Source of the DNA: an uncultured Alphaproteobacteria bacterium
Lineage (GTDB): Bacteria; Pseudomonadota; Alphaproteobacteria; JAJFIK01
Assembly (NCBI GenBank): GCA_964561475.1
Contig: CAZLPU010000005.1
Coordinates: forward strand, 4,425-68,424
Length of the DNA stretch: 64,000 nucleotides
Direction of reading: 5' to 3'
Part shown: piece by piece, positions 29,669 through 61,022 of the stretch
Position numbering within the stretch: position 1 is the first letter of the stretch
How the letters are laid out: each line of letters begins with the position of its first letter
The notes under the pieces: model-generated
Seen by the model: the letters and a program-made list of their open reading frames with translations, nothing else
Database searches by the model: none
What the model was told of the DNA's origin: nothing
Translations under genes and position numbers: made by a program

Positions 29669-30432
29669 AGCTTCCTCTTTGTGTCTGTCCTGTGTGGACG
29701 AAAGTCGAACATCAGAGACTGGTCATTGGTGACGCTGTCTCAAGAACTGTGATCCGGGAACGCCGCGTCCGGAGCTTTGGCCGGTTCGGTCACCCCCATG
29801 CCGCATACGGCTGCCCGCTATGGGCGGACAATGCGCGCGGCACGCCCAGAGTGCCCCGGTAAGCCTGCGCGGCCCCGGTCGAAACAGCTCTGGAGGACGA
29901 GACCCGGCTGAAAGGCCCCTACCTGCTCCGGTAACGGCCTGCTCTGCTAACGGCCCGCTCCGCTAAGGCGCTGGGCTTGCGGGTCAGGCAAAACCCCTTG
30001 GAATGATAACCCCCAAGGTATTGCGCCTTGCTTGTCCGGTCGGCTGCGTTTGGGCGTTGCTGACGGATGCAGCCAAGCCTTGCCGGCGGCATCGGCTAGA
30101 TCCTGGGCAATCCGTTTCTGCCCGGCCTCTCGACCTGTTCGCTGGCTTATTCCGGCCTGTGGACCCATCCCCGGCACCCTGTTGCGGGGCACCATATCCG
30201 AACGCTCAGGGGAGAAAAGCCCTTTCGGATCGGCGGTCTGAGTTTTTAGCCAAACTTAGCGATGTTTGCGAACTTCGAAACGAAGTTAAGAGCGTTTCCA
30301 TAACAGAGCCGCGCATTCTTAAAATAAACACATGACCACACTTTACAACGCGCGCATATTGGGTCAAAAGTTTCCCCAAAGAATAGAGTAACGGGTGTAT
30401 GTCCCCCGCTGTTTTCTGGCGCGAGCATCGGT

Positions 30433-30843
30433 ATGTCTGAGTCCGAATTGACGTCTGGTCTCATTGATAAGCATGTTGGCAACCGCATGCGTGTGCGAAG
30501 ACTGAGTCTTGGGATCAGCCAACAGGATTTAGCTGGCCGGCTCGGGCTGACATTTCAACAGATCCAGAAATACGAAAAGGGCGCCAATCGTATTGGCGCC
30601 TCCCGCCTTTACGAGTTGGCTGGCTTTCTACAGGTTGATGTCAATTTCTTTTTCGAAGGTCTCGACCAGGAGACCGAAATTGCTCATGAGCATTTGATCG
30701 ATGCCTTCAAGGCGGCGTCACCCCGATTTGGAACCCGGGAGTTTGTGGAACTCAACCGCGCGTTCCAACGGATTGCCGACCCCTTGCTGCGCACCCACAT
30801 TTTGGCGCTTATCGACCGCATCGCCGAAAAACAAAGCGCCTGA
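30433..30843 (+). CDS. XRE-family helix-turn-helix transcriptional regulator
   Basis: HTH_3-like N-terminus (RMRVRRLSLGISQQDLAGRLGLTFQQIQKYEKGANRI) plus a conserved C-terminal extension. Confidence 0.8.
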   Translation: MSESELTSGLIDKHVGNRMRVRRLSLGISQQDLAGRLGLTFQQIQKYEKGANRIGASRLYELAGFLQVDVNFFFEGLDQETEIAHEHLIDAFKAASPRFGTREFVELNRAFQRIADPLLRTHILALIDRIAEKQSA

Positions 30844-31177
30844 CCCGCGAGCACTCGTTGGCAAACCGCGGGGTTTACCGCCCCCAACCGGGTACCTTAA
30901 TCCCGGTGTCTTACCCCCGGTGTCTTACACCAGGAGTTTGGCCTTTACTGTCTCACCCCAATCACCTTGCCCAATGATCAGGTTTCATTCATCGCGGTTC
31001 GGACACGACATCCGAGAATAATGAACACCATTGAATTACTTGGAACCACCAAGAGAATCCTAAGAAGTCCCCGGGCTGAGCTTTACCCCGACATGCCGAT
31101 GTCGGGGCAGCCGTTGCCGGGGTCGAGCTTTGCCGAAACCTCGCATAAGCGGGGCCTCGCACTAACGGGGCCTCCCT

Positions 31178-36131: not shown

Positions 36132-36584
36132 CTAAAGCCACCGCCGGACCCGGCGCCGGTAATTCTCGAAGGACGGCCCGAATTTTTTGGCCAGCGCCTC
36201 CTCCTCGGGCTTGATCTGAAAAACGGTGATGTAGACGACAAAAAGCACCAGCAGCCCCCCGTTGAGCGGGTGCCCGAGCCACACCGCCCAGCCCATGAGC
36301 ATCAACAAAAGCCCGAGATACATGGGATTGCGGCTGACCTGATAGATGCCCGTCACCACCAGCGTGCTGGCAGCCGCGGGCGCGAGAGGACTCACAGTCG
36401 TTTTCCGGCGTACAAACGCGGCAAAGGCCACCATGGCGATGGCAAAACCGGCGACAGTCAAAACGACCGCCATGAGGCCCTGGCCGGGAAAACTGAACAC
36501 CCAGCCGGGCAGAACCATGGTCACAAGCCACATCAAAATGCCGACGGCCAGGGCCTGGGCAGGCGCCGGTACTTTCAAGTGCAT
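36132..36584 (-). CDS. Isoprenylcysteine carboxyl methyltransferase (ICMT)/phospholipid methyltransferase family membrane protein
   Basis: 150 aa with four TM helices. The conserved C-terminal RNPMYLG...FQIKPEEEALAKKFGPSFENYRRRVRRW is typical of the ICMT/PEMT family. Confidence 0.65.
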   Translation of the reverse strand: MHLKVPAPAQALAVGILMWLVTMVLPGWVFSFPGQGLMAVVLTVAGFAIAMVAFAAFVRRKTTVSPLAPAAASTLVVTGIYQVSRNPMYLGLLLMLMGWAVWLGHPLNGGLLVLFVVYITVFQIKPEEEALAKKFGPSFENYRRRVRRWL

Positions 36585-36753
36585 TTTTGCTCTTTCTTCA
36601 GGAGCCAGCCCCCGGCTGAATCCTGTTCCACAATGGGCGGGCGCGCAATAGCCCGGCCCATGGGGCGTCATGGCGCGGGTCCGTGCCATCCTGATGCGGC
36701 CCCACCGGTCCCGGCGCCCCATGGATCTCTGCCCAATGAGAGGAGTGCTCCCC

Positions 36754-38676
36754 ATGCTCGATCTTGCCATTGTCCTCCTGTTTGTCGCGGTGACGATCGG
36801 GTCAGGATTTCGAGCGCGCAAGGCGGCCTCCCGGAATTTGGATGAGTATTTTCTGGCGGGCCGCACTGTGAGCGGCTGGCGGGCGGGACTGAGCATGGCG
36901 GCCACCCAGTTTGCCGCCGACACCCCCCTGATCGTCATGGGGCTGATTGCCACCGGCGGGATCTTCCTGTTCTGGCAGTTCTGGGTCTATGGCATCGCTT
37001 TTCTGATGATGGGTTTCCTGTTCGGGGCATCCTGGCGCAGGGCAGGGGTTCTGACCGATGCGGAACTGGCGGAGGTGCGCTACAGCGGGCGGGGCCGCCT
37101 GGCTCTGCGTGTACTGAAGGCTTTCTATTACGGAACCCTCATCAACTGCATTGTCATGGCTTTCGTTCTGGCGGCCACGGTGCAGATCGCCGAGGTGTTC
37201 CTGGTCTGGCACCAGTGGCTGCCGGCAGGGCTCTATGATCCTCTGCGCGACATGATCGCCGCCCTTGATGTGCAACTCACCCGGACGGTCCCGCCCCCCA
37301 ACTCCGGCTCTGGCCCTGGCTCCGGCCTGGATCCCCTCACCGCGACCACCAACAACATGGTCAGCATCGGGTTGCTGCTGGCCTTCATCGCCGTTTATTC
37401 AACCACCGGCGGCTTGCGCAGCGTCATCTTCACGGATGTCTTCCAGCTCGGCATCGCACTCTTCGGCACACTGATCTATGCGGTGATCGTTGTGGTGGAA
37501 TGCGGCGGATTGGGGGCCATGGTGAACCGGCTTGTGGACATCTACGGGGACGACGCCGCCCGGCGCACCCTTTCCTTCGCTCCGGACACCCTGGACATGA
37601 TCGCCCCGTTCCTTGTGCTGATGGGTCTCCAATGGCTCTATCAGGTCAACAGCGACGGCACCGGCTATCTGGCCCAGCGGACCATGGCCTGCCGCACCGA
37701 CCGGGAGGCGCGCATCGCCGCCGTGGTGTTCACCTGGACCCAGATCTTTCTGCGCAGCGTCCTGTGGATCGTCATCGGCATCGCGCTGCTGGTGCTCTAT
37801 CCGCTCACCACGGATATGACGGATGGTACCCTCAGCGCCAGCCGGGAAGCGACCTTCATTACGGGAATTAAGGACTACCTCCCCGCCGGGATCAGCGGAC
37901 TGATGCTCACGGGGCTTTTGGCCGCCCTCGCGTCCACCATCGATACCCACCTCAATCTGGGTGCGGCCTATTGGAGCAATGATCTCTACAAGCGTCTGGT
38001 GAACGAGGCCTGGCTGAAGCGGGAGCCCGGGGAGCGGGAACTGGTCTGGGTGGCCCGGGCCTCGACCCTGGTGGTTCTCGGGCTTGCGCTCCTGGTCATG
38101 GGCCACCTCAGCTCCATCGCCCAGGGATGGAAGATTTCTCTTCTGTTCGGGGCGGGCGTGGGATCGGTGCTGATTCTGCGCTGGCTCTGGGAGCGGATCA
38201 ATGTCACGGCGGAACTCTCCGCCATCGCCGTATCCCTGGTGGCGGGTGTGGTGCTTCTCATGCTCCTGCCCGACGATGATCAGGAATGGCTGCGTCTCGG
38301 GCTGATGGCGCTCCTTTCCACCGCAACGGTGGTGACCGCCGCCCTGCTTGCTCCGCCCACGGACCAGGACACCCTGAAATCCTTCTACAAGAAAGCCCGT
38401 CCCGTAGGTTTCTGGGGCAGCACCGCCCGCGCCCTGGGGGAGGATCCTTCCGTCCCCTTGCGCCGTTTCACCGGCGGGCTGACCCACACCGTGACCTGCG
38501 CCCTCGCGGTCTTCCTTGCCATTTACGGCACCACCCGCCTGCTCCTCCCCCTACCGGACACCCCCTCCTGGCCCGCCTGGACAGCCCTCATCACCAGCCT
38601 CGCCCTCACCCCCATCTGGCTGGGCGGCATTATTGGTCCCGACACAGATCAAGAGAGTGTCACGCCGATGAAGTAG
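36754..38676 (+). CDS. Sodium:solute symporter (SSF) family transporter
   Basis: AGAGGAG Shine-Dalgarno upstream of MLDLAIVLLFVAVTIGSGF. An SSF N-terminus, about 13 TM helices and a long C-terminal extension. Confidence 0.8.
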   Translation: MLDLAIVLLFVAVTIGSGFRARKAASRNLDEYFLAGRTVSGWRAGLSMAATQFAADTPLIVMGLIATGGIFLFWQFWVYGIAFLMMGFLFGASWRRAGVLTDAELAEVRYSGRGRLALRVLKAFYYGTLINCIVMAFVLAATVQIAEVFLVWHQWLPAGLYDPLRDMIAALDVQLTRTVPPPNSGSGPGSGLDPLTATTNNMVSIGLLLAFIAVYSTTGGLRSVIFTDVFQLGIALFGTLIYAVIVVVECGGLGAMVNRLVDIYGDDAARRTLSFAPDTLDMIAPFLVLMGLQWLYQVNSDGTGYLAQRTMACRTDREARIAAVVFTWTQIFLRSVLWIVIGIALLVLYPLTTDMTDGTLSASREATFITGIKDYLPAGISGLMLTGLLAALASTIDTHLNLGAAYWSNDLYKRLVNEAWLKREPGERELVWVARASTLVVLGLALLVMGHLSSIAQGWKISLLFGAGVGSVLILRWLWERINVTAELSAIAVSLVAGVVLLMLLPDDDQEWLRLGLMALLSTATVVTAALLAPPTDQDTLKSFYKKARPVGFWGSTARALGEDPSVPLRRFTGGLTHTVTCALAVFLAIYGTTRLLLPLPDTPSWPAWTALITSLALTPIWLGGIIGPDTDQESVTPMK

Positions 38677-38924
38677 CGGCCCTGCATCGCCAAGTGCTCG
38701 CAGGGGAGGTACCCCCTCAAGTCACCCGGGAAATCCGACAAAACAATGAATGGCTGAGTGCCCCAGAAAGCCCGGCCAAATATACGGACCGAAGCACCAT
38801 GGCCCATGAAGGTGAAAGCGGCGACCTGATGGCAGGAACTTGCACTGATCTTACAATCAGAACATTGAATTCCCATTCGGATCGGAACCTCAACGCTGAC
38901 AGGCAAACCAATACGATCCCAGAT

Positions 38925-39524
38925 CTATTCCACAGACAGCTTCCGCGCTCTTTCAAGCAACTCCAATTCTTCTTGCCCTAAATAACCCTGTATGCATTCC
39001 AAGGCCAACACAACCAGGCTGTGGTATCCCAAATCGAAGCCCAAGAATGAAAGCTTTGCAATGCGCTTTACATATTCCCGCTTATAAAAATCATCTGAAA
39101 TCCTGAAATTATAATGGAGATGAAGAACTTCCGAATAGAAACTTAAACGCCTGAAACACTCAATATCACCCATGACATAGTGTAGCAACGCATCACTGAA
39201 CAAGCGCAAACATTTTTCCAAAGTGATTCTTAAGGCACCCGCGCCATCAATGACGAAACTCCAGTCATTAACCTTCTTCAGGTTTTCCAGAGCCGCAATA
39301 TCGATAAGAGAGAATGTTCGATAGGATCCAAAATACTCGATAGCCGGATCGAGAAGACCGAATTCGATCCAGAGCTCCTCATCCCAAGTCGAAAACGTGA
39401 TGGAAACACGATCGGACGCAAAAACCTGACCGTGGTCCGTGGCTTCCGCACCGGAAAAGCCGAGTGCAGACAACCTGACCGTACAGACCTCTTTGACAAT
39501 TTCACGAAACCTGCGTGTTTCCAT
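38925..39524 (-). CDS. Hypothetical protein (199 aa) encoded in a low-GC islet next to tRNA-His
   Basis: The only clean ORF in a ~40% GC segment flanked by ~65% GC DNA. No recognisable domain. Soluble and acidic. Confidence 0.5.
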   Translation of the reverse strand: METRRFREIVKEVCTVRLSALGFSGAEATDHGQVFASDRVSITFSTWDEELWIEFGLLDPAIEYFGSYRTFSLIDIAALENLKKVNDWSFVIDGAGALRITLEKCLRLFSDALLHYVMGDIECFRRLSFYSEVLHLHYNFRISDDFYKREYVKRIAKLSFLGFDLGYHSLVVLALECIQGYLGQEELELLERARKLSVE

Positions 39525-39908
39525 GTCTCCGCAAAGCTACACCTTGTTGCAAGTTCAACCCGTACTGCTTATCCGAACGGGACCATCTATCGGTGCCCGC
39601 CATTTCAACATACTTTCATCCATGGCTCGATCGGGAGTAAACCGGGGTGGTCCCACTTTGTCGGCACGACCGTGATTTGAAATCTCATCCGACATCCCCT
39701 TTGTGAAGTCCAAAACCGGGCCGCAGGGCGCCATCTGAACGGCCGAAGCTGCGGGTTCTGGGCTTCAAGCCGTCGGCGCTCGGTACATTGGCGTGTAGAA
39801 GGACACGAGCCACCCCCTTTGCACCAGGGGCAAGTCATCGGATGCGACCCCCAAATAGAGATCCAGAGGCAAACTGCAACGGCTGACGATTTAACTGAGT
39901 GATTGAAA

Positions 39909-39985
39909 TGGTACAGCTGCCCCGGTTCGAACGGGGGACCTCTAGATCCACAATCTAGCGCTCTAACCGACTGAGCTACAGCTGC
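39909..39985 (-). tRNA. tRNA-His (anticodon GTG), alphaproteobacterial type (no encoded G-1, A73, G1·U72)
   Basis: Manual fold of the reverse complement: acceptor GCAGCUG/CAGCUGU, D-arm GCUC-AGUCGGUUA-GAGC, anticodon arm CUAGA-UUGUGGA-UCUAG, variable loop AGGUC, T-arm CCCCG-UUCGAAC-CGGGG, then A-CCA encoded. Confidence 0.85.
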
Positions 39986-40335
39986 ACTGGGAGGCGGGCC
40001 CGCAGGCCTGCGAGACCCGTACACATACCGTCACAGCCGGGCGGTTGCAAGGCCTGGAAATCGAAGGATCTCCCCTGCCCCGATCCATTATGGAACGGGG
40101 CCGCCCTTGGCATGGGATTACCCTGCCCATGGGGCAAGGATGCCACAGCCGCCCGTCCTTGGACATTTACGGGAAAACATGGCCGGTTTGTAACTGGCCA
40201 AAGCCTCCCCCAGAGCCGATGCCCGAATGATCATGTATTGAAGGTCCGGCATACGGCAACGCGCCGGTTGGGACAGGGCCGGAACGGCCGGAGCCATCAA
40301 GCCAGGCCCGGACCGGCCCCCTTGGGAGCCTTGCG

Positions 40336-41772
40336 GTGACCGATATCGTCTTTGAAGACGAAAAGATGCTCATTATCGGAGCGGGTCCCATGGGCCTTGC
40401 CGCGGCCCGGGCGTTGTGGGCCCGGGAGATCCCTTATGTGCATGTGGAAGCCGACGCGGGCCCCGGCGGGATCTGGCGCCACGGGATGCGCCCGCGCACC
40501 CGGGCCACCACCCCCCGCCATCAAATGGCCTTCCCCGGGTTTCCCATGGACCCGTCCCTGCCCCTGTTTCCCCTGCCCCATCAGGTGCGCGCCTATCTGG
40601 AGCACTACGCCGCGGCCCACGGCCTGACCGATGCCATCCAGTTCGGGACCAAGGTGGTATGGGTCCGCCCGGCTGAGGACAATTTGTGGGAAGTCACCTT
40701 CGACGACGGGCGCCGAGCCCTCTACAAGGGCGTGCTTGTGTGTTCCGGTCAGGCCTGGGCCGCCCGCTGGCCCCTGATCGCGGGCACCTTCACGGGGGAT
40801 TACCTCCATGCCCGGGATTTCGCCGACCCGACCCAGCTCCGGGACAAACGGGTGCTGGTGATCGGCGGGGGCACCACCGGCTGCGATGTGGTCTGCGAGG
40901 CGGCCCGGGTTGCCCAGGCCACCACCTGGAGCCTGCGCGGTGCCAGCCACATCCTGCCCCGTTTTCTGCTGGGCCAGCCCATTCACGACTGGATGAACCT
41001 GCCCCTGCCCCTCACGGTCCGGCGCATGCTGATCAAGAGTGTGGTGCGGGTGATCAACGGGCCCTACAGCCGTTATGGCCTGCCTGCTCCGGAGACGGAT
41101 CTGTTCGACCGGGACCCGGTGATCGGCGGAGAGGTTCTGGAGCATATCTCCGCGGGCCGTGTCACGGTGAAGCGGGAAGTACGCGGGTTTGAAGGCAGTT
41201 ACGCCAATTTTGAAGGGGCGGACCGGCTGGGCGGCGCCTGCGCTTTCGACGTGGTGATCTGCGCGACGGGCTACAATCTGGCCTTCCCGTTTCTGCCCGA
41301 TGACCTGTGTCCGCAGATCGGCCAGGTCATGCAGCTCCAGAGCCATGCGGTGCTGCCCGGCTACCGGCACTTCTACCTGTTGGGCGGCGGGCGTCCCTGG
41401 ACCGGTTTCGGCCCCATGGCCCAGCCCATGGCGGATCTGGTGGCCCAATGGATTGGCCTTCAGGACCGGCTCGACCATCCCCTCGGCCTGTGCCTTCAGG
41501 CTCTGCGCAACCGTCCGCCCCAGCGCCCGGTCTCCGATCCCCGACGCACGGCTCAGCATGTACGGGCCTGGAAGAACCGGGACTGGCTGATCCGGTTCGC
41601 CGACCACTCTTTGATCGACGGTCCGGGCGAGCCCAATGTCCCCCTGGATCCCCCGGCACATCTGCCGAGCCCGCCACCGCCCACAGATCCCGCCGGTACG
41701 GAGGAAACCTCTTCACCGGATAAAGCGCCCGCCCGCTCCTCCCACAAAGGCCGTCCCCTGAAAGTGTTCTGA
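40336..41772 (+). CDS. Flavin-containing monooxygenase-like NAD(P)/FAD-binding oxidoreductase
   Basis: Two Rossmann dinucleotide motifs (IIGAGPMGLAAA near the N-terminus, VIGGGTTGCD mid-protein) and an FMO-like spacing. The proline-rich C-terminal tail is low complexity. Confidence 0.7.
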   Translation: MTDIVFEDEKMLIIGAGPMGLAAARALWAREIPYVHVEADAGPGGIWRHGMRPRTRATTPRHQMAFPGFPMDPSLPLFPLPHQVRAYLEHYAAAHGLTDAIQFGTKVVWVRPAEDNLWEVTFDDGRRALYKGVLVCSGQAWAARWPLIAGTFTGDYLHARDFADPTQLRDKRVLVIGGGTTGCDVVCEAARVAQATTWSLRGASHILPRFLLGQPIHDWMNLPLPLTVRRMLIKSVVRVINGPYSRYGLPAPETDLFDRDPVIGGEVLEHISAGRVTVKREVRGFEGSYANFEGADRLGGACAFDVVICATGYNLAFPFLPDDLCPQIGQVMQLQSHAVLPGYRHFYLLGGGRPWTGFGPMAQPMADLVAQWIGLQDRLDHPLGLCLQALRNRPPQRPVSDPRRTAQHVRAWKNRDWLIRFADHSLIDGPGEPNVPLDPPAHLPSPPPPTDPAGTEETSSPDKAPARSSHKGRPLKVF

Positions 41773-41829
41773 TCGGGTACTCTCCCGGACGCATCAGAGT
41801 GGCCTCAGACACTGGGAAGGAGTGGGACC

Positions 41830-42018
41830 ATGGGATTGAACGACCCGAGCGACATTGCCGCCGATCTGCAAATCGGCGCGACGGATCAGGGGATGGTGCG
41901 CATTTATGTCAGTGCACCGGGGGTGGACCTGCCGATGGATTTCACCCCGGAAGAGGCCCTGGACATCGCCGAAGATCTCCAGGCTGCCGCCCAGGCCATC
42001 CAGGCGGCGCGGAAATAG
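41830..42018 (+). CDS. Small hypothetical protein (62 aa)
   Basis: GGAAGGAG Shine-Dalgarno 7 nt upstream. Acidic, non-repetitive composition. Convergent with the downstream LOG-like gene. Confidence 0.45.
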   Translation: MGLNDPSDIAADLQIGATDQGMVRIYVSAPGVDLPMDFTPEEALDIAEDLQAAAQAIQAARK

Positions 42019-42021
42019 CTT

Positions 42022-42582
42022 TCACAAGCCCAGAATGGTCTTGCACAGGATGAAACGGGCGCCGGGCCAGTCATCGCAGAAAATCGCGCCGGGCACCTGG
42101 GGGGCGCTGGGCAGGGACAAAACCGTCCGGTTGAATTGAAGTCCCAGGGCGATTTCCGACAGGGTGCCATAGCCCCCGGCAATGGCGATCAGGGCGAATG
42201 CGGATCGGGCGATGATGGCATTACGCGCCGGGCCCAGGCCGCTCGCCAAAGGCACCCCCACATGGCCGTTGGCCCCGCTCCAATGGTCGTCCGGCAGCAG
42301 GCCGATGGACAGTCCCCCGGCGTCTTCCACGCCCCGGCTTGCGGCTTCCATCACACCGCCTTTGCCGCCGGTGAGGACCACAAGCCCCAGCTTTGCCAGG
42401 TCATGGCCCACCTGTTCCGCGATCTGGAGGTCCCCAGGTGCTGCATCCCGGGCACCGATCACCGCAACGGGCGCACGTAACCGGTAGCCGCTGTTGCGCT
42501 GGAGCCAGACCACGGCGGTTTCCGGTGAAACCGCTTCCGCGCCCTTGCCCGCCGGCTCCCCATCCCGCCAGGTCCGGGTCAT
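42022..42582 (-). CDS. TIGR00725/LOG-family Rossmann-fold nucleotide-binding protein
   Basis: The core VAVIGARDA....LVVLTGGKGGVMEAASRGVEDAGGLSIGLLP....IIARSAFALIAIAGGYGTLSEI matches the LOG/TIGR00725 family. Start uncertain; the ORF extends upstream to 42714. Confidence 0.6.
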   Translation of the reverse strand: MTRTWRDGEPAGKGAEAVSPETAVVWLQRNSGYRLRAPVAVIGARDAAPGDLQIAEQVGHDLAKLGLVVLTGGKGGVMEAASRGVEDAGGLSIGLLPDDHWSGANGHVGVPLASGLGPARNAIIARSAFALIAIAGGYGTLSEIALGLQFNRTVLSLPSAPQVPGAIFCDDWPGARFILCKTILGL

Positions 42583-42973
42583 GGGATCGAACCGCTTCGG
42601 GCCCGGACGCCAGAGGCTCAGGCTGGAGCCGGGCATGAAGTAAAGCCCGGGATCCGCGAACTGGCCACCATGTCCGCCCCCCTCCGGCCGTCCCGATGAT
42701 CTATGCCCCATCACTCCCCTCCATCCCCATCACTCCCCTCCAGATCTTCTCAAGAGCGCCCCTGCCCTTGGGGGGTGCCGAGGCTCCCGCCCTCTTTTTG
42801 CTCGCGGTTTCTGTTTCGGTCAGCCCCGTTTTATTCAACGGTGCGTGCCATTTACGCCCATTCCATGATGACGCCCCTGGGGACATGGTATGCCCCTTGC
42901 TGCCCAGGTGGTGAGCGTAAAGTGCCCCCCTGAGACACCCGGCACCGGCATGGGCTGATCTGAACCATTAACC

Positions 42974-44734
42974 ATGCAAGATTGGCGCCGGGCCATGTGT
43001 CATACCGGGACCGTCCCGGAATGGGGCGCCAAAGAATTCCGGCAGGGGATTGGGGCCCGGCTGAAAGGGGAAAACGTGACCGTGCACGAACCAGACTTGG
43101 ACAGATCCGGCGCCCTCGGCCCGGCCATGGCCACCCATGAGCCGGACAGTTACGCAGGCATTGCCCCGGACACATCCTCCCACGGGACGCAACGCTCCCA
43201 GGCCGCCACAGCCGCCGGGGCGACCCCAGGCCGGCAGGCGGATCAGGACGCCGCTACACCCCTGGCCGGTTCCTGGCTTCTCGACCCGGAAAGCCAGGCC
43301 ATTCTCTGGGCTGATCCCCAGGCCATCCGGTCCTGGCAGGCCGACAATCTCGGCGATCTGCTCGACGCCAGATTCAATCCCCATGATCCGATGCTCCTCG
43401 CCCTGAAAGCCCTGAGCAGGCGGATGAAACCCGGTGACAGTCTCGTGGAGGGACTGCGGCTCATGGCGGGCAACCGGCTGGGCATCCATGCGCTCTGCCG
43501 CATCAGGGCCCAGGAGATCCGGAAAGGGCGCATGGGCCTTCTGGTGGAGATGCTGGGGGCAGCACCGGATTACACCGCACCGGCCGGAGACGGAGCGCCG
43601 AGGCGGAAAGGCGCGCCCTTGAGCGCCCTGATCACCGCCATTGGGCTTCCCTTGCTCATTGTCGATTCCGCCGGGCGCATCTCGGCGGCCAACCCAAGCG
43701 CCCAGCGGCTGTTGCGGCGGGACCAGGAGGCGCTTCAGGGACTGGCACTGGCTGAACTGGTCATGCCCGAGGACCGGGACGGGCTTTCCCGGATTTTGGG
43801 CAACCCGGGCCCGACCGGCGGTGTGAGCACCCTTCACCTCGCGCCCTTCACCGCCGACGAACCGCCTTTGCCCGTGGAACTGCGGGGAGGACCCATTGAA
43901 GGGTCAACGCCGCCGCGTCACTGCGTCCTTGTCCGGGACCTCTCCGAGGCCCACAAGACCCAGGCCGACCTGACCGACGCGAAAGAGCAGGCCGAGGCCC
44001 AGAACCGGCGCAAGACCGATTTCATCGCCCGGGTCAGCCACGAGCTTCGCACCCCCCTGACCGCCGTCATCGGCTTTGCGGAATTGATGCTCAAGGGCGG
44101 TCTCGGGCCCGTGGGCAATCCCCGCTACGAGGCCTATGCCCGCCATGTCTTCGAAGCGGGCCACCATGCCCTTTCCCTGGTGGAGGACCTGTTGGACCTG
44201 TCCCGGATCGAGACCGGCCGCATGGTGCTGGATCCCGGACCCGTGGATGTGGCGGGGCTGATCACAAGCTGCACCACCATGGTGGAGCCCCTGGCCGCCA
44301 ACAGTGCCGTGATCCTGGAGGCCGGCCCGCCGGAAGACCTGCCCCTCGTGCACGGGGATGGCCGGTCCCTGCGCCAGGTGCTGCTCAACATCCTGACCAA
44401 TGGGATCCGCCACACCCCGCCCGGCGGCAAGGTCAGCGTCACCGCCCATGTCACAGCCGACGGTCAGGTTCTGGTGCGGGTCAGTGACACAGGGGACGGT
44501 ATGAGCCGGGAAACCCTGGAGCAGGTTCTGTCCCTGACCGGCACCCGCCGGGACGGTCCCGACCAGGGTCCTTCCGCCGGCCCGGGGCTTGTGGAAAGCA
44601 AGGGCCTGGGTCTCGGACTGCCCCTGGCCAAGGCCCTGGCCGAAGCCAATGGGGCACAGTTGAGCTTGCGGAGTGTCCAGGGCGAGGGCACCATTGTGGA
44701 GGTCCAGCTTCCACGGGAGGAAGCGCCGGTCTGA
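42974..44734 (+). CDS. Cytoplasmic PAS-domain sensor histidine kinase (orphan)
   Basis: HisKA H-box (FIARVSHELRTPLTAVIGFAELM) and HATPase_c (N, G1, G2 boxes). No TM segments and no adjacent response regulator. Start uncertain (42974-43127). Confidence 0.75.
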   Translation: MQDWRRAMCHTGTVPEWGAKEFRQGIGARLKGENVTVHEPDLDRSGALGPAMATHEPDSYAGIAPDTSSHGTQRSQAATAAGATPGRQADQDAATPLAGSWLLDPESQAILWADPQAIRSWQADNLGDLLDARFNPHDPMLLALKALSRRMKPGDSLVEGLRLMAGNRLGIHALCRIRAQEIRKGRMGLLVEMLGAAPDYTAPAGDGAPRRKGAPLSALITAIGLPLLIVDSAGRISAANPSAQRLLRRDQEALQGLALAELVMPEDRDGLSRILGNPGPTGGVSTLHLAPFTADEPPLPVELRGGPIEGSTPPRHCVLVRDLSEAHKTQADLTDAKEQAEAQNRRKTDFIARVSHELRTPLTAVIGFAELMLKGGLGPVGNPRYEAYARHVFEAGHHALSLVEDLLDLSRIETGRMVLDPGPVDVAGLITSCTTMVEPLAANSAVILEAGPPEDLPLVHGDGRSLRQVLLNILTNGIRHTPPGGKVSVTAHVTADGQVLVRVSDTGDGMSRETLEQVLSLTGTRRDGPDQGPSAGPGLVESKGLGLGLPLAKALAEANGAQLSLRSVQGEGTIVEVQLPREEAPV

Positions 44735-44866
44735 TCCGATGAGGATCCGGGAGGGGCGGCACTAAGAATGACTTGCAAAAACAATCCATCGTGGTCAAAT
44801 ACATCCCACAAAGGCGAGGGCCCGCTCGGGGCAGACCTGCGCCTCGGCAGTGGGAGAACCGGACCC

Positions 44867-45055
44867 ATGTATGTTTGTATTTGCCATGCCTTGCGTGAGA
44901 AGGATGTGCGCCGGGTTGTCAATGACGGCGAGACAAGCATTGTGAAGGTGTATCAGAGCCTGGGCTGCAAGCCGCGCTGCGGAAAATGCCTGGGCATGGT
45001 GGCAGAGATTGTTGCTGCGGGAAGCCGTGACGGCACCCAGCAGGGCGGCGCCTGA
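44867..45055 (+). CDS. bfd: Bacterioferritin-associated ferredoxin (Bfd, 2Fe-2S)
   Basis: MYVCICHALREKDV....CGKC cysteine pattern of BFD-like [2Fe-2S] domains. Directly upstream of bfr. Confidence 0.7.
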   Translation: MYVCICHALREKDVRRVVNDGETSIVKVYQSLGCKPRCGKCLGMVAEIVAAGSRDGTQQGGA

Positions 45056-45492
45056 CCTTCAGACTCACCCCTCAAAATCCCGGCCCCGGCCAAGCCTCCG
45101 ACAGGACCAAATCGCGGACCGGCAATGGTCCGGCCGGGCGGATGTCACGGCCACCAGTGCCACGGTCGGACCGGCTGATGAGCGGGGCTTGCGACGTTCC
45201 TGGTGCAAATTACTTTCAGAGGCGGCGCCTTTGCCGCGCATTCGCAAAGAACCTCGTGTTTTCGTGGGCGGATGAGACATATCCTGCGTTGCCAAGCCAC
45301 GGTATCCTGGCCTAACCATGGCGCGTTGAAGGCTGCTGGCGCCCTCGATCCCGTCCCATCCCCGCCCCTCTCAGCCTGCCGGTCAGGTCGAGGGCGAGGA
45401 CACGGAAGATCCGGCCCGCAGCCCCGTCATTGTTTCCTTTGGTCAGGACCCGTCATGGGCAGCCTGCCCCTTTTCAGCAAGGACCGAGCACC

Positions 45493-45984
45493 ATGAAAGG
45501 CGATCCCAAAGTCATTGAGTATCTCAACCTGGCCCTGAAACAGGAGCTGACCGCCATCAACCAGTATTTCCTCCATGCCCGCATGCTGAAGGACTGGGGC
45601 GTGATGAAGCTGGCGGACAAGGTCTATCACGAATCCATCGACGAAATGAAGCATGCGGATGTTCTCATCGAACGCATCCTGTTTCTGGACGCCCTGCCGA
45701 ACCTGCAGGACCTGGACAAGCTCATGATCGGTGAGGATGTGAAGGATTGCCTGGAATGCGATCTGAAACTCGAGCAGCGCGCTCACCCGCTCTACAAGGA
45801 AGCGGTGGAGTACTGCGAGCAGTCGAAAGATTACGTCAGCCGGGAAATCTTTGTGCGGATCCTCGAGTCCGAGGAAGAGCACATTGACTGGATCGAGACC
45901 CAGCTTGACCTGATCGACCGCATCGGCCTTGCAAGCTACACCCAGGGTCTCATGGGCGACGCAGGCGCCAGCGAAGAAGACTGA
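45493..45984 (+). CDS. bfr: Bacterioferritin
   Basis: MKGDPKVIEYLNLALKQELTAINQYFLHARM... matches bacterioferritin, including the haem-ligand Met and di-iron ligands (E, ExxH). Confidence 0.9.
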   Translation: MKGDPKVIEYLNLALKQELTAINQYFLHARMLKDWGVMKLADKVYHESIDEMKHADVLIERILFLDALPNLQDLDKLMIGEDVKDCLECDLKLEQRAHPLYKEAVEYCEQSKDYVSREIFVRILESEEEHIDWIETQLDLIDRIGLASYTQGLMGDAGASEED

Positions 45985-46051
45985 TCCTCACGGAACAGCG
46001 TCAATCTGGTCATAAGGCCAGAAACAGGGACCACATGAGGGGAGCGCCAGG

Positions 46052-47833
46052 ATGACCGACACAGCGCGCCCTTTTGGCCCCTCCCCGGATCGCGCCGGTT
46101 CCGCCAACCGGGCGGCTCCCCTCCCCGCCACCGCGCCTCGATCCGTGCCCCCAGGGGCACTCAGTGCGCGGAAGGGACAGCTTCGCTGGTTGTCCGGGGC
46201 GGCTCTGGTTCTGGGCGGGCTCATCGCCCTGCCCATTCTGGGCATTCTCGCAAGTCTGCTCGCGCCCGTTTTCGGTGTCAGTAGCGGTCCCGACGGGGCA
46301 TGGCCCCATGTCCGGGACACGCTTCTTGGGGAAATGGCCCTCAACTCCCTCTTGCTGGCTCTGGGCACCGGAACCGGTGTCACGGTCATCGGCGTCGGTA
46401 CCGCATGGCTCGTCACCATGTGCGCCTTTCCAGGACGGCGGCTGTTTGAATGGGCCCTTGTCCTGCCCCTGGCGGTTCCGGCCTATGTGCTCGCCTATAT
46501 GTACACGGATTTTCTGCACCACCCGGGAGCGGTCCAGACGGCTTTGCGGGCGGTCACCGGCTGGGGACCCCGGGACTATTGGTTCCCGGAAATCCGTTCC
46601 CGGGAAGGGGCCATCCTGATTTTCAGCGCCGCATTCTATCCTTACGTCTATCTCCTGACCCGGGCGGCCTTTCTCCACCAGTCTGTGTCGATCCTGGAAG
46701 CCAGCCGGTCGCTCGGTGCCACGCCGTGGGCAAGTTTCACCCGGGTGGCCCTGCCCATGGCCCGGCCGGCGATCGTGGCGGGTCTGGCCCTGGCGCTGAT
46801 GGAAACCCTTGCGGATTTCGGAGCCGTGGCCCATTTCGGCGTGCCGACCCTCACCACGGGAATCGACCGGGTCTGGGTGTCCATGGGGGACCGGCTTCTG
46901 GCGGTTCAACTCTCGGCGGCCCTGCTGAGCGTGATGATCCTGCTTCTGGTGCTGGAGCGGCGTAACCGGGGCAAGGCCCGGTATGACGACACAAGAGGGC
47001 GCTACACCACCCTGTCCCGCTACCGCCTCTCTCCCCTCGCCCAGGCGGGGGCCTTCACCGCATGTGCCCTGCCGGTGGCCATCGGGTTTGTAATCCCGCT
47101 GTGCCTGTTGATCTCGCTCAATGCGACGGCGGGCCATGACCTGTTTGCCCCCCGCTATCTCACCCTGACCTGGAACACCATGACCCTGGCGGGCCTGAGC
47201 GCGGTGATCACCACCGGGGTCGCGCTGATCCTGGCCTATGCACGGCGGCTGCAAGGGGGCCCGATCGGCACATGGACCGGACGGCTGGCCGGTCTGGGTT
47301 ACGCGCTTCCGGGCACGGTGATCGCGGTGGGCATCCTCTGGCCCCTGGCCACCTTCGACAATGCCATTGATGCGGCTTTCCGGGACCTGTTCGGCGTCTC
47401 GACGGGACTGGTGCTGACCGGGAGCATCGCCGCCCTGCTTTATGCCTATACGGTCCGTTTCCTGACCATTCCGCTCCAGTCCGTGGAGGCGGGGTTGACC
47501 CAGATCACCCCCAATATGGAAGCCGCCGCCCGGACCCTGGGGGCGCGCCCCGGGGAAACCCTCCGGCGTGTTCATGTACCCATTCTGAGCACGGGACTGC
47601 TCACCGCCGCGATGATCACATTCGTTGAGGTGATGAAGGAGCTTCCGGCCACGAAAATCCTGCGGCCCTTCGATTTCGACACGCTCGCCACCCAGGCCTA
47701 CCGGTTCGCCTCCGACGAACGGCTGGCGGAAGCCTCCACGGCGTGCCTGGTGATTGTCGCCGCCGGCATCGGCCCGGTGATCATCCTGTCCCGGACCATT
47801 GCCCGGTCCCGTCCCGGCGCAACCATCATCTGA
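46052..47833 (+). CDS. Iron(III)/thiamine-type ABC transporter permease with duplicated transmembrane domains (FbpB-like)
   Basis: 593 aa. Two BPD_transp_1-type halves, each with an EAA-like loop. Architecture is typical of FbpB/AfuB. Confidence 0.8.
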   Translation: MTDTARPFGPSPDRAGSANRAAPLPATAPRSVPPGALSARKGQLRWLSGAALVLGGLIALPILGILASLLAPVFGVSSGPDGAWPHVRDTLLGEMALNSLLLALGTGTGVTVIGVGTAWLVTMCAFPGRRLFEWALVLPLAVPAYVLAYMYTDFLHHPGAVQTALRAVTGWGPRDYWFPEIRSREGAILIFSAAFYPYVYLLTRAAFLHQSVSILEASRSLGATPWASFTRVALPMARPAIVAGLALALMETLADFGAVAHFGVPTLTTGIDRVWVSMGDRLLAVQLSAALLSVMILLLVLERRNRGKARYDDTRGRYTTLSRYRLSPLAQAGAFTACALPVAIGFVIPLCLLISLNATAGHDLFAPRYLTLTWNTMTLAGLSAVITTGVALILAYARRLQGGPIGTWTGRLAGLGYALPGTVIAVGILWPLATFDNAIDAAFRDLFGVSTGLVLTGSIAALLYAYTVRFLTIPLQSVEAGLTQITPNMEAAARTLGARPGETLRRVHVPILSTGLLTAAMITFVEVMKELPATKILRPFDFDTLATQAYRFASDERLAEASTACLVIVAAGIGPVIILSRTIARSRPGATII

Positions 47834-47860
47834 GGCTGATCGCCTACCTTATGATCAGGT

Positions 47861-48754
47861 TCAATCCGCCGGTTGAAAGACAATGATGATATCCGACTGG
47901 GCCATCAGCTTGTGCCGTTCGACGGCGGTTTCCTGGGTTTCCCCGTCCTTGTCCCGGTATTTGAGTTGGATGGTCTGTTCCACCGGCTCCCTGGTCTCGC
48001 CATGCTCCGAAGTCTGCTTTTTCACTTTCGGATCCAGATAGAGAATGACGCCCCCTTGATGGCGGGGAAAGGAGCGGACCGTTGCCCCGTCCACCAGAAC
48101 ATGGGCCCAATCGTCACTGGAATGGAGGGGCGGAAACTTGGACGGGGGCATCTCGATGCGCACTTTGGCCATGGTGCGCTGCTGCTGTTTGACGAAAGCG
48201 CGGCCTTCGGACGGTTTGCGCAGATTCACTGCACTGAAAATCCGGTAGACCGCATCATTGCCTCCGGCCAGCACCAGCCCTGTCAGCAGGAAGCCCAGGC
48301 CGGTCGGGAAGGTGCCATCGGGGAAGGGTTCCCCGAAGCCTTCCATCACACTGGCCAGAATGTTGATCTCGACCACATTGGTCACCACAAGGGCCGAGAT
48401 GATGATGAAGGGGGTCTTGAAGGCCTGTCCTTCCAGGAAGGCGGCAAAACGGCGGGAATTGAACAGGGTGGTGTAGGCCTGCTCCAGGATCAGGGTGATC
48501 AGGGCAAGCATCAAAAGATCGTCGATCAGTTGCTCATATTTGCCGTGATGATCCTCATCGCCGGGATTTTTAGTGCGCTGATCACCGGCCGCATCCGTCG
48601 CCTGCCCTGTTTCAGCAGAGGACGGAGCACCGCCGTTATCGCCTGGCTGAGCGCTCTGCCCACCGTCACCCTGGGCAAAAGCATCGACACTTTCGCCGGT
48701 CACCCCTGCCAGGAGCAGAACCAGCAGAAAGAAAACACGCGTCAGTCCAACCAT
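47861..48754 (-). CDS. Hypothetical membrane protein (signal peptide, Gly/Asp-rich segment, 3-4 TM helices, soluble C-terminal domain)
   Basis: Chosen over the overlapping + strand ORF (47873-48787) because it has a signal peptide and coherent hydrophobic helices. No recognised family. Confidence 0.5.
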   Translation of the reverse strand: MVGLTRVFFLLVLLLAGVTGESVDAFAQGDGGQSAQPGDNGGAPSSAETGQATDAAGDQRTKNPGDEDHHGKYEQLIDDLLMLALITLILEQAYTTLFNSRRFAAFLEGQAFKTPFIIISALVVTNVVEINILASVMEGFGEPFPDGTFPTGLGFLLTGLVLAGGNDAVYRIFSAVNLRKPSEGRAFVKQQQRTMAKVRIEMPPSKFPPLHSSDDWAHVLVDGATVRSFPRHQGGVILYLDPKVKKQTSEHGETREPVEQTIQLKYRDKDGETQETAVERHKLMAQSDIIIVFQPAD

Positions 48755-48959
48755 GACCACCTCCGCCGGTTTCAATGCCTGACTTGATGAACATCAAGCT
48801 ATAGGCCCGGCACGGAAGTCTGCCAAGACGGCGGCCCCGGCGCATAAGAGGTTGGTCTTATTGAGTACTGATCCGCGTCCCTGCCCTCTTTGCGGCGGGA
48901 ACGCGGACACTTCCGGGAGGAGGCCGGGCCAATCGATGAGGCCCGGCCGCAGGCTGGTT

Positions 48960-50066
48960 TTACTTGTAGCCCGCAGCGTCAAAGGTCCGTTGGGCTTCGG
49001 CCTGCTTCTCGCCGAGAACGGAGAGATTGAGGGTATCGGCCTTGAAGGCGCCCAGTTGGGAGACCGTGGCGCTGAGGGCCACGCCCTCCACCACCGGGTA
49101 TTCGTCATTGCCGCTGGCGAAATAGGTCTGGGCCTGGTCCGTGGCCAGATATTCCAGGAACTTCACGGCATTTTCCCGGTTGGGGGCGTTCCGCAGCACG
49201 CCGCCGCCGGAAATGTTCACATGGGTGCCGGTGGTTTCCTGATTGGGGAAGATGATCCCGATCTGGCCGGTCTGGTCCGGGTGCGCGAGGCCACGCACAT
49301 CAAGGCGGAAAGCACGGGCGAGGTAATAGGTGTTGCCGATGGCCAGATCGCATTCGCCGGAGACAATGCCCCGCAACTGATCCGTGTCACCGCCCTGGGG
49401 TTCCCGGGCCCGGTTCGCCCAGACCCCCTTCGCCCAGTCCAGGGCTGCCTCGGAACCGCGATTGGCAATCACCGATGCCATCAGGGAGAGCATGTAGATG
49501 TTGCTGCTGCTCCGGGTGCAGACTTTGCCCTTGTAGTCGGGCCGGGCCAGATCCGCGTAGGTCTTCACCGGCGCAGGATCCACCCGGTCCTTGGCGTAGA
49601 AGATCACCCGGGCCCGCTGGGAAAAGCCGTACCAGAGATCGTCAGGGTGCCGCAGGGCTTCGGGCACCCGGGCCTTGAGGGCCTCGGAATCCACGGGCTG
49701 GAGCAGATCCGCTTCGACCGCCGCCCACAGACGGCCCGCATCGGTGGTCAGCAGCACATCCGCCGGAGAATTGCGCCCCTCCGCCTTCAGACGGGCGAGC
49801 AGCACATCCGCCCGATCCTCGATCCGGCGCACCTGGATCCCGGTGGCTTCGGTGAAATCCGTGTAGAGCCGTTCGTCGGTGTCGTAATGGCGGGAGGAGT
49901 AGAGATTGACCACCCCTTCCGCGCTGGCGGTTGTCGTGTCCGCCAGTCCGGCCCAGAGCCCGAGCGCACCCGCCGCGATGACCGAGAACGCGCGCCCGGC
50001 AGTCAGCCGCCGCCCGAAATCCCTGAGACGCCCAAAGGCTTTCAATTTCCGTATCCCACCCGCCAT
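48960..50066 (-). CDS. fbpA: Fe(3+) ABC transporter substrate-binding protein (FbpA/AfuA-like)
   Basis: GGAAGGAG Shine-Dalgarno upstream of MAGGIRKL. Signal peptide. NLYSSRHYDTDE and CTRSSSNIYM regions are typical of ferric-binding SBPs. Confidence 0.85.
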   Translation of the reverse strand: MAGGIRKLKAFGRLRDFGRRLTAGRAFSVIAAGALGLWAGLADTTTASAEGVVNLYSSRHYDTDERLYTDFTEATGIQVRRIEDRADVLLARLKAEGRNSPADVLLTTDAGRLWAAVEADLLQPVDSEALKARVPEALRHPDDLWYGFSQRARVIFYAKDRVDPAPVKTYADLARPDYKGKVCTRSSSNIYMLSLMASVIANRGSEAALDWAKGVWANRAREPQGGDTDQLRGIVSGECDLAIGNTYYLARAFRLDVRGLAHPDQTGQIGIIFPNQETTGTHVNISGGGVLRNAPNRENAVKFLEYLATDQAQTYFASGNDEYPVVEGVALSATVSQLGAFKADTLNLSVLGEKQAEAQRTFDAAGYK

Positions 50067-50343
50067 GACGGTACTCCTTCCCGAATTCGGCCCGGATCCG
50101 AGGCCTTCAATTATGACTTTGCAAATCATTATCAGAAATGGGCCCGAACGCAAGGGATGATGGGTGCGCAGATAATGGAGAGCCACGTCCTCTGGGTTTG
50201 TTGGCGCATCAAGACGCGGCGCATGGCAACACACCATCAGAGAGAAGGGTCCCGCTCAGAAGCGGGCTGTCATTGTGCGGCAATCTTGATAGGGTGCGGG
50301 CAAAATACAGAATTCCCTGACCGTCAATTCGGAGGACACCGTC

Positions 50344-52407
50344 ATGGTCGGCCGTATTCTACTTTTTCTTTTGGGATTGATCGTTCTGCTGGTCGCAGCC
50401 GCAGTGATCATCCCGTTCTTCATCCCCGGCGAAGTGTACCGCACCCAGATCACCAACGCCGCCCGGGACGCAACGGGCCGGGAATTGACCATCCGCGGCG
50501 ACATCAACCTGTCCCTGCTGCCGCCGATTTCTCTTAAGGTCTCCGATGTTCAGCTCAGCAACGCGGAGTGGGGCGAGGCGGAGCACCTGGCGACCGTGCA
50601 AACCCTGTCCGTTGGCATCGAGGTGCTGCCCTTCATCTTCGGTCAGCAGGTCAAGATCTCGAGTTTTGTTCTGGAAGAGCCCCAGATCAATCTGGAGACG
50701 GACCGCAACGGCAAGGGCAACTGGGAATTCGAACCCCAGGGCGGCGCCGACGCCTCGGTACGGGACGTATCGAATGAGCAAGGCGGCTCCGGCCAGGAAG
50801 CCAGCCAGCCCGCATCCGGCGGGCAGGATCAGGGCATAAACGATATCAGCCTGGGCGATGTGCGGCTGGTGAACGGCCGGATCAGCTATCTGGACGGCGC
50901 CACCAACGAGCGCCAGACCGCGGAGAACATCAATCTCTCTATCGGTCTGCCGAGCCTGGACGGTCCCCTCACCATGAATGGCGGCGCCACTTACAATGGC
51001 GAGGCCCTTTCCGTGGATGCCCGGATCGACAGCCCGCGCCAGTTCATGGACGGCACGAATACGGGTGTGCGTTTCGATCTGTCCTCTGAGCTGATCAATG
51101 CCCAATTCGCCGGTAACGCGGCGAGCGACAATAACGAGGATCTGCCGGTGCGGGCCGCGGGGGATGCCTCCGTAACCATTCCCTCGCTCCGCCGCCTGAG
51201 CGCCTGGGCGGGCCAGCCCATGGAAGACGGGGAAGGCTTTGAGGAACTGGCGGTCTCCGGCACCCTTGAGGCGGCCAATGCCGTGGTGGCGTTCAACAAT
51301 GCCAATGTCACCTTCGACGACATCAAGGGTGAGGGCGAAGTGGCCGCCAATCTCGGCGGCCGGGTGCCGAAAGTCACCGGCGACCTCAAGCTCAACAAGG
51401 TCGATACCCGTCCCTATGAGGGCGCTTCGGAACAGCAGGCCAATGCCGCCCCGCAAGTGCGGCAGGTGAGCAATACCCAGAATGCCCCCCAGGGCTGGAG
51501 CGACGAGCCTATCGATTTCTCCGGTCTGCGGGACTTCGAAGCCGACATCACCATGTCCATGGACGGGCTGGAGACCTCCACCCTGCGCATGGGCCCAAGC
51601 GCCGGGGACCTGAAGGTTCAGGGCGGCGTTCTGACCCTCAATCTCAGTGAGATGGACATTTACGAAGGCGGCGGCCGCATCTTCACGGAAGTGGACGCCA
51701 CCCAGGCCCAGGCCCGGATCACCAACCGGATGAACCTCAACGCCATCCAGGCCCGCCCCATGTTCGCGGACCTCATCGGCAGCGGCATCATCACCGGTCT
51801 GGGCGACATGGAACTGGACATCACCACCCGGGGCGCCTCCCAGGCCTCCTTCGTCCGGGGCCTGAACGGAAAGACGGAACTGTCCTTCAATGACGGCAAG
51901 CTGTTCGGCAGCCTGGACCAGGTGGACGAAGCCAACCGGCTTGGCCGCGCCATTGCGGTCATCGCCAACGGTCTTGTGCTGGCCTCCCAGCTCAATGCGA
52001 TCAAGGACGATCAGATCCAGGGCGTGTCCCAGTTCCTGTCCCGTCCGAAAGAGCTGAGCACGGATTTCGCGAGCATCACCGGTGCCTTCAACACCGTGAA
52101 CGGTGTTGCGGACACGAACATCAACTTCGTGACCCCGGTTCAGGGCCTGGCAATTACCGGCGAGATCAACATGGTCAACCAGACCCTGGATTTGCTGATC
52201 AAACCGAACCAGTGCTCCGGCGATATGAGCCGGATCACGAAATTCCTGTGCAGCTCCGGCATTCCCGTGCGCGGACCCTGGGTCAGTGTCCGGCCTGCTC
52301 TGCCCACCCCTGAAGCCATTCTGTCGGGTGCGGTCAAAGACCAGATCCGCGACCGCATTCCCGGCGGTCTTGGGGACCTGATCCCGGGCCGTGGCGGCGG
52401 CAACTGA
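50344..52407 (+). CDS. AsmA-family protein
   Basis: N-terminal membrane anchor (ILLFLLGLIVLLVAAAVIIPFFIPGEVYRTQI) and a long beta-rich periplasmic domain with an AsmA-like C-terminal region. Confidence 0.75.
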   Translation: MVGRILLFLLGLIVLLVAAAVIIPFFIPGEVYRTQITNAARDATGRELTIRGDINLSLLPPISLKVSDVQLSNAEWGEAEHLATVQTLSVGIEVLPFIFGQQVKISSFVLEEPQINLETDRNGKGNWEFEPQGGADASVRDVSNEQGGSGQEASQPASGGQDQGINDISLGDVRLVNGRISYLDGATNERQTAENINLSIGLPSLDGPLTMNGGATYNGEALSVDARIDSPRQFMDGTNTGVRFDLSSELINAQFAGNAASDNNEDLPVRAAGDASVTIPSLRRLSAWAGQPMEDGEGFEELAVSGTLEAANAVVAFNNANVTFDDIKGEGEVAANLGGRVPKVTGDLKLNKVDTRPYEGASEQQANAAPQVRQVSNTQNAPQGWSDEPIDFSGLRDFEADITMSMDGLETSTLRMGPSAGDLKVQGGVLTLNLSEMDIYEGGGRIFTEVDATQAQARITNRMNLNAIQARPMFADLIGSGIITGLGDMELDITTRGASQASFVRGLNGKTELSFNDGKLFGSLDQVDEANRLGRAIAVIANGLVLASQLNAIKDDQIQGVSQFLSRPKELSTDFASITGAFNTVNGVADTNINFVTPVQGLAITGEINMVNQTLDLLIKPNQCSGDMSRITKFLCSSGIPVRGPWVSVRPALPTPEAILSGAVKDQIRDRIPGGLGDLIPGRGGGN

Positions 52408-60617: not shown

Positions 60618-60635
60618 TGTCGGCACGTTTGGAAG

Positions 60636-61022
60636 ATGCTGCGAAAAAAAGTAAGTCTACTCATCCCCTCGGGCACATATCACGATCCAGAACGCAAACA
60701 CCTATTTGTGATTTGCACTGATCCCTGCACCAATGGGCTCCAGGTTCTCGTGAATGTGACGACGTGGACAAATAGCCTATGCGATGCAACCTGTCGCCTC
60801 TCTCGCGGTGATCATCCGTTTATACGCCACGACAGTTACATTCTCTATCGAAAGGCGCGTATAGAGCACAATAAAACACTTTTAAGAGGTGTTGAGAATG
60901 GTGTTTTTCTGCCGCGACAACCTTTCAAGGGAGCTGTTTTTGCAAGGATCCAATCGGGGATCGTTTCCTCACCCCACACACCTGGTAGGGTGAAAAATTA
61001 CTTCCAAAACAAAACCCAATAA
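60636..61022 (+). CDS. Hypothetical 128-aa protein, candidate cognate toxin (PanT-like) of the Panacea-domain protein
   Basis: Starts 18 bp after the Panacea gene with a GGAAG Shine-Dalgarno. Same low GC. No recognisable domain. Followed by the CCTAGC-aggaaa-GCTAGG hairpin. Confidence 0.45.
   Translation: MLRKKVSLLIPSGTYHDPERKHLFVICTDPCTNGLQVLVNVTTWTNSLCDATCRLSRGDHPFIRHDSYILYRKARIEHNKTLLRGVENGVFLPRQPFKGAVFARIQSGIVSSPHTPGRVKNYFQNKTQ

Follow-up and report, generated by a model that had tools for sequence, protein, structure and literature searches.

Genomic islands and islets are frequently found at the 3' ends of tRNA genes and have deviant nucleotide statistics (PMC2704930). The features by which an island is recognized are atypical composition, a location at a tRNA 3' end, direct repeats of 16-20 bp, an integrase, and a presence that varies among strains (PMC2704930). 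Among ORFans, 39% lie in clusters of atypical genes, and these derive mostly from integrative elements (Cortez, Forterre & Gribaldo 2009, PMC2718499).

We analysed a 64-kb stretch of DNA, called the window here and throughout in the sense of the whole stretch, and followed up one interval in it that lies 3' of a tRNA-His gene. This interval probably holds a recently acquired foreign islet of about 0.8-1.2 kb that carries one real ORFan gene. It resembles genomic islets in that it is a discrete segment of less than 10 kb whose GC, tetranucleotides and codon usage are atypical, adjoins a tRNA 3' end, and is accessory DNA, missing from the one syntenic relative that we found. Unlike genomic islands, it has no 16-20-bp direct repeats and no integrase or other mobility gene, even as a remnant, and it contains one gene only. 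The gene is like the ORFans described by Cortez and colleagues (PMC2718499) insofar as it is short, AT-rich and atypical, has no database match, and occupies the type of site that integrative elements use. It differs from them in being a single gene and not a cluster, and in lacking a virus or plasmid link in IMG/VR, INPHARED and PLSDB, all of which gave null results. As a kind, the islet is ordinary: AT-rich ORFan islets at tRNA genes are a routine product of the gene flow that mobile elements bring about.

Table 1. Coordinates of the islet, of its surroundings in the window, and of the corresponding genes in the syntenic relative L048.
Feature	Position	Strand	Remarks
Lone HTH_3 (XRE-type) regulator gene, 136 aa	30433-30843		GC3 0.60
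SSF (sodium:solute symporter) gene, 668 aa	36670-38676	+	Pfam SSF, E = 2e-33; stop codon is the left limit of the islet
Left spacer	38677-38924		From stop codon to stop codon of the SSF gene (+) and the ORFan (-), which converge
Singleton ORFan, probable gene, 199 aa	38925-39524	-	Low-GC core of the islet
Right spacer	39525-39908	-	tRNA trailer and presumed promoter/5' UTR of the ORF; GC 0.555
tRNA-His (anticodon GTG)	39909-39985	-	ARAGORN; Rfam RF00005, 68.4 bits
Four-gene block	window 40336-44734; L048 3596-7892		Conserved in both genomes
Second low-GC islet	60054-61022	+	GC ~0.47; GC3 0.51 and 0.46
SocA-like Panacea-domain antitoxin gene, 187 aa	within 60054-61022	+	Pfam PF13274, E = 2.9e-19
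L048, 382-aa protein gene	L048 1195-2343	+	No significant Pfam match; membrane-associated look, by eye
L048, 202-aa PEP-CTERM protein gene	L048 2420-3028	-	GC 0.52-0.58; 3' of tRNA-His

Position, composition and limits of the islet

The only tRNA that ARAGORN found in the window is tRNA-His(GTG), and the Rfam assignment agreed with it. Because this gene lies on the minus strand at 39909-39985, the interval 38677-39908 is its 3' flank. The islet thus sits directly downstream of the tRNA 3' end, where a preliminary description of this DNA had placed it, and that 3' end is its right-hand limit.

To the left of the islet, the SSF gene was called by NCBI as 640 aa (P0003), compared with 668 aa for the longest ORF. 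SSF homologues align from about residue 29, and the true start is therefore probably about 28 codons past 36670. The 668-aa ORF overlaps a PEMT-like gene on the opposite strand.

Base composition was followed along the whole 64-kb stretch in 600-nt windows, which have a mean GC of 0.626 (sd 0.040). The lowest of these, at 0.447 or about 4.5 sd under the mean, falls on the 199-aa ORF. In 300-nt windows GC is 0.41-0.49 over about 38800-39550, and the 100-nt minimum is 0.33 at 39050-39149. Comparably low GC occurs at only one other place in the window, 60.0-61.0 kb. The preliminary description had reported a drop to about 40% GC for about 1.2 kb. The sharp dip is there, but its depth and extent were overstated: the 1,232 nt of 38677-39908 average 0.503, the ORF itself has 0.453, and the strongly atypical core measures about 760 nt (approximately 38800-39560). 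Nor is the low GC confined to intergenic DNA, since the spacers on the two sides of the ORF, at 0.544 (left) and 0.555 (right), are richer in GC than the ORF is.

Codon and oligonucleotide statistics of the core are also atypical. The ORF has GC1/2/3 values of 0.51/0.35/0.51, its GC3 of 0.51 comparing with 0.72-0.86 in likely host genes. Core and host tetranucleotide profiles correlate at r = 0.11, versus 0.83 +/- 0.05 (minimum 0.60) for 200 native pieces of 760 nt. Given the trough on the ORF, the GC3 and the tetranucleotides together, the anomaly is real and strong and is centred on coding DNA.

These values bear on whether the gene could be a native one, specific to the lineage and evolving fast, whose low GC would stem from mutational or regulatory constraints acting locally and whose missing homologues would be due to poor sampling. 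We consider this quite unlikely. GC3 and the tetranucleotide correlation put the core far outside the native range, the adjoining native intergenic DNA (the spacer between the tRNA and the FMO, or flavin monooxygenase, gene) has a GC of 0.65, the syntenic relative has no ORFan at this position, and the other low-GC patch of the window holds a Panacea antitoxin gene, which is typically of a mobile kind. What speaks for a native gene is that the lineage is very poorly sampled, with best non-self identities of 61% for SSF and 45% for FMO, that mobility genes and att sites are missing, and that GC at the left edge falls gradually and not abruptly.

The left edge of the foreign DNA is somewhere in 38677-38924, a spacer in which GC drops toward the ORF. 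Both spacers were scanned with Rfam, which gave no RNA family, and neither contains terminator-like sites. Folding was no more stable than that of shuffled sequences for the right spacer (z = +1.48) and not unusually stable for the left (z = -0.63). Six-frame fragments of both spacers compared with Pfam gave no match above noise and hence no trace of a pseudogene, and the small ORFs of the left spacer had no Pfam match. On these null results from Rfam, folding and six-frame Pfam, a hidden RNA or pseudogene in the spacers was rejected. The right spacer contains a 59-aa ORF at 39555-39734 on the minus strand, with a flat GC1/2/3 profile (0.57/0.55/0.53) and no Pfam match. A toxin-antitoxin-like reading, with this ORF as one of two genes, was rejected on the flat profile and the absence of a family match.

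Correct assembly of this region was examined with Logan contigs. One contig, from run SRR6462991, is 100% identical to window positions 36271-39305, and another, from SRR6462993, is 100% identical to 38558-39935, so that the low-GC DNA is physically joined to the SSF gene and to the 3' end of tRNA-His. Contigs of both runs break within tRNA-His, at 39935 and 39949, and none spans the tRNA, probably because the k-mers there are common to the tRNA-His genes of other community members. Given these breaks, the join across the tRNA depends on the 101-kb NCBI contig and on matching composition: in tetranucleotide usage the sequences left and right of the tRNA correlate at r = 0.98, and 8-kb chunks of the window correlate with each other at 0.91-0.96, versus 0.70-0.90 with other organisms. 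Faulty assembly or binning could have joined a piece of some other, low-GC organism at the conserved tRNA. An artefact of this kind would be in keeping with those breaks, with the metagenomic derivation of the contig and with the standing of tRNAs as classic points of chimeric joins. It is nevertheless highly improbable. The assemblies of two runs cover, at full identity, the path from SSF to the ORF and the path from the SSF 3' end through the ORF to the tRNA, both halves of the window share one tetranucleotide signature, and a chimera was rejected on these two grounds.

The 199-aa reading frame and its predicted product

As the preliminary description had stated, the islet contains one clean ORF without a recognizable domain. 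Shuffled sequences were used to estimate how often an open frame of this length arises. Stop-free runs of 199 codons or more turned up in 18 of 5,000 sequences made by shuffling the islet and in 12 of 20,000 made by shuffling the core, which corresponds to a probability of about 6e-4 to 4e-3. Over the span of the ORF the other five frames contain 5-12 stops. At 0.34, the share of G in the first codon position exceeds that of the five other frames (0.16-0.28) and comes near the 0.35-0.42 of host genes, and GC1 exceeds GC2, which is the pattern of real genes. Less in favour of a gene, a Shine-Dalgarno-like GGAG stands just 2 nt before the ATG, and a scan with a sigma-70-like consensus gave no minus-strand promoter for the ORF. 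Judged by its sequence, the ORF probably encodes, or until recently encoded, a real protein.

The product would be a protein of 23.1 kDa with a pI of 5.2, in which Leu, Glu and Phe are abundant, proline occurs once and transmembrane segments are absent. AlphaFold (AF2) run on the single sequence gave a model of low confidence (pLDDT 48.6, pTM 0.52), in which an N-terminal helix is followed by 3-4 beta strands and by a C-terminal bundle of about five helices. We read the product as a soluble, acidic, cytoplasmic protein whose N-terminal half is alpha/beta and whose C-terminal half is helical.

Base composition varies along the ORFan. Its opening 175 nt (39350-39524) have a GC of 0.526 and the other 425 nt have 0.424. 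The GC-richer part corresponds to roughly the first 58 codons, that is, to the predicted N-terminal helix and first strands. This unevenness could come from partial amelioration, from a mosaic origin or from chance.

We searched for relatives of the protein in family, structure, protein-cluster and mobile-element collections. With thresholds of E <= 10, neither Pfam, searched with the whole 199-aa protein and with each half, nor the PADLOC models gave a match. NCBIfam gave noise only, PHROGs gave no match, and phmmer against the sequences of the PDB found nothing above noise. A word-indexed search of 5.8 billion protein clusters returned the ORFan itself only, as did a full HMMER scan of 1.84 billion representative proteins. 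Foldseek against BFVD gave no match at E <= 0.001, and the viral contigs of IMG/VR contained none. In 50,697 phage records (INPHARED), tblastn gave noise at E = 8 only and blastn gave nothing. Searches of plasmids (PLSDB) with blastn and tblastn yielded no credible match. A tblastn match in a Persicobacter megaplasmid (E = 0.5) lies within an ORF for a 1,925-aa surface protein, and on that ground it was rejected as chance. By these sequence comparisons, the 199-aa protein is a true singleton ORFan. Without a relative among about 15 billion predicted proteins, it is a candidate for structure or expression screens of undescribed families.

The lack of homologues in everything that was searched also bears on whether the frame is functional. 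The DNA could be foreign and low in GC while its 199-codon ORF is a chance frame, or a decaying one, in an AT-rich remnant. Such a frame would have no family, structure or fold match, as is the case here, and low AF2 confidence, a poorly spaced Shine-Dalgarno element and no minus-strand promoter match would be in line with it. In addition, 0.06-0.36% of the shuffles reach the length of the ORF, a proportion that is not negligible genome-wide. We judge a non-functional frame unlikely all the same, since the open frame spans most of the low-GC core and every other frame is interrupted repeatedly, first-position G peaks in the annotated frame, GC1 and GC2 stand in a gene-like relation, and the predicted secondary structure is regular, at the pTM given above.

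The preliminary description had further proposed that the gene might have an immunity, anti-defence or orphan toxin-related role. No model match, partner gene or neighbourhood supports this. The ORFan has no match to a defence, toxin, antitoxin or immunity family, and no phage or prophage homologue. Its neighbours are the convergent SSF gene and the tRNA, the small flanking ORFs show neither a coding signature nor a Pfam match, there is no operon partner of the toxin, effector or sensor kind, and no defence or toxin neighbourhood was found around it. Orphan immunity proteins of polymorphic-toxin systems and small anti-defence proteins share with the predicted product that they are small, acidic, soluble and stand-alone, are carried on imported DNA, and have an alpha/beta part followed by helices. 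The likeness is generic only: unlike such proteins, the ORFan matches no Imm, SUKH, DUF or PADLOC model and has no toxin, secretion or defence gene beside it. If the product does anything, its likeliest role would be that of an accessory mobile-element protein acting through protein-protein binding, for example in orphan immunity, exclusion or anti-defence, but this specific role is a guess and at the very best an unlikely one.

Gene content beside tRNA-His and in a distant relative

To one side of the islet the neighbouring genes encode SapC, an HTH regulator, an endonuclease/exonuclease/phosphatase-family protein, an FAD oxidase, an HD-domain protein, TRL-like and Tll0287-like proteins, a PEMT-like methyltransferase and SSF. 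The ORFan and tRNA-His follow, and beyond them are the genes for FMO, DUF6324, a LOG-like protein (SLOG cluster 4), a PAS histidine kinase, ferritin and an ABC permease. Pfam searches with the main ORFs of 28.9-47.8 kb, about 9 kb on each side, found no integrase, transposase or recombinase, and six-frame Pfam searches of both spacers found no remnant of a mobility gene. A copy of the tRNA-His 3' end was looked for by pattern search with 3 mismatches, with a repeat finder, and by Smith-Waterman alignment compared with shuffled sequences. None was found above chance near the distal edge or anywhere leftward. The absence of both an integrase and an att repeat, noted when the islet was first described, therefore holds within these searches.

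No close relative is present in the searched collections. The only syntenic relative found is L048 (GCA_964612085.1, contig CAZTCJ010000041.1), whose FMO gene recurs in a Logan contig of SRR6462995, from the same accession series. It is collinear with window positions 39907-51426, a stretch of about 11.5 kb lying 5' of tRNA-His, and the collinear block comprises tRNA-His (minus strand), FMO, DUF6324, LOG, the histidine kinase, BFD, ferritin, the permease, a binding protein and AsmA. The relationship is distant, with amino-acid identities of 41-82%. At the nucleotide level, blastn gives 84.7% identity over window positions 39907-39991 and nothing to the left of there, so the collinearity stops exactly at the tRNA-His 3' end.

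On the 3' side of its tRNA-His, L048 has the PEP-CTERM and 382-aa protein genes listed in Table 1, followed by a dienelactone hydrolase (DLH) gene. All three lack a match anywhere in the window, and the 202-aa protein bears no relation to the ORFan. No orthologous genome carries the ORFan, and the relative has other genes in the slot. To judge from the two gene orders, the DNA 3' of tRNA-His seems to be a site of gene turnover in this lineage. The L048 contig ends 3.2 kb past tRNA-His, and given this and the distance between the two genomes, the break may be an old rearrangement and not an insertion.

Two further observations concern the two loci. In both genomes the slot next to the tRNA is occupied by a minus-strand, lower-GC gene for a protein of about 200 aa, the ORFan in one and the PEP-CTERM gene in the other. 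On the opposite side, a four-gene block of FMO, DUF6324 (62 aa), SLOG-cluster-4/LOG and PAS histidine kinase genes adjoins tRNA-His in both.

Relatives of the flanking genes were also followed in other genomes. Relatives of the SSF gene, at 40 genome loci, have no tRNA-His nearby, and the best of them, on a TARA scaffold, is not syntenic. Four FMO relatives (P0125, P0126, P0128 and P0131) lie in an unrelated MreB/RodA context. A metagenome scan with an FMO alignment gave 7 loci, and the five FMO-like ones that were scanned (39-43% identity) had no tRNA. Apart from L048, every FMO or SSF relative that was inspected proved non-syntenic.

Origin of the islet and other low-GC patches

From this evidence we infer a horizontal origin for the islet, with an integrative element as the vector. 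Most likely, a phage, plasmid or other integrative element would have inserted 3' of tRNA-His, its integrase and att repeat would later have been lost, and the islet would be the remnant. Alternatively, illegitimate recombination may have brought in a single gene at a hotspot of gene turnover beside a tRNA. Daubin and Ochman, in 2004, are said to have attributed short, AT-rich ORFans to a phage origin. The searches of phages, plasmids and viral contigs identified no donor of the islet DNA. The preliminary description had spoken of a decayed island or a minimal acquired cargo gene. The structural half of that statement fits the composition, the absence of homologues and the break of collinearity with L048 at the tRNA; the functional half, as set out above, has no support.

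It is very unlikely that the ORFan is the first representative seen of an undescribed family of stand-alone conflict proteins, such as anti-defence, exclusion or orphan immunity factors, brought by an unsampled mobile element of a poorly sampled alphaproteobacteria-like lineage. The tRNA-His 3' flank would then be a cassette-like slot that swaps single genes for proteins of about 200 aa without leaving integrase footprints. The idea of such a slot comes from L048, where the same position holds a different lower-GC gene of about this length in the same orientation.

The second low-GC islet of the window lies between a DnaJ-like/MerR-like gene pair and an IMPDH-like gene, these names having been read from the translations. 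A 128-aa ORF without a Pfam match starts 18 nt downstream of its Panacea gene, and the two are arranged like a PanA-type toxin-antitoxin pair whose toxin is unclassified. No mobility gene was found in this islet. The tRNA-His islet is like it in being about 1 kb long, with a similar composition and no mobility genes. The tetranucleotide correlation between the two islets is r = 0.51, and each has about 0.1 with the host. The Panacea islet differs in having two genes and a Pfam domain and in not adjoining a tRNA, as against a single gene without a partner at tRNA-His. Taken together, the two islets suggest that low GC is a mark of imported DNA in this 63%-GC genome.

A further patch of moderately low GC is located at 29669-31177, around the lone HTH_3 gene. 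The gene is flanked by spacers of about 760 nt and 330 nt that have no ORF with a host-like coding signature. GC in this patch is 0.545 over 30001-31000.
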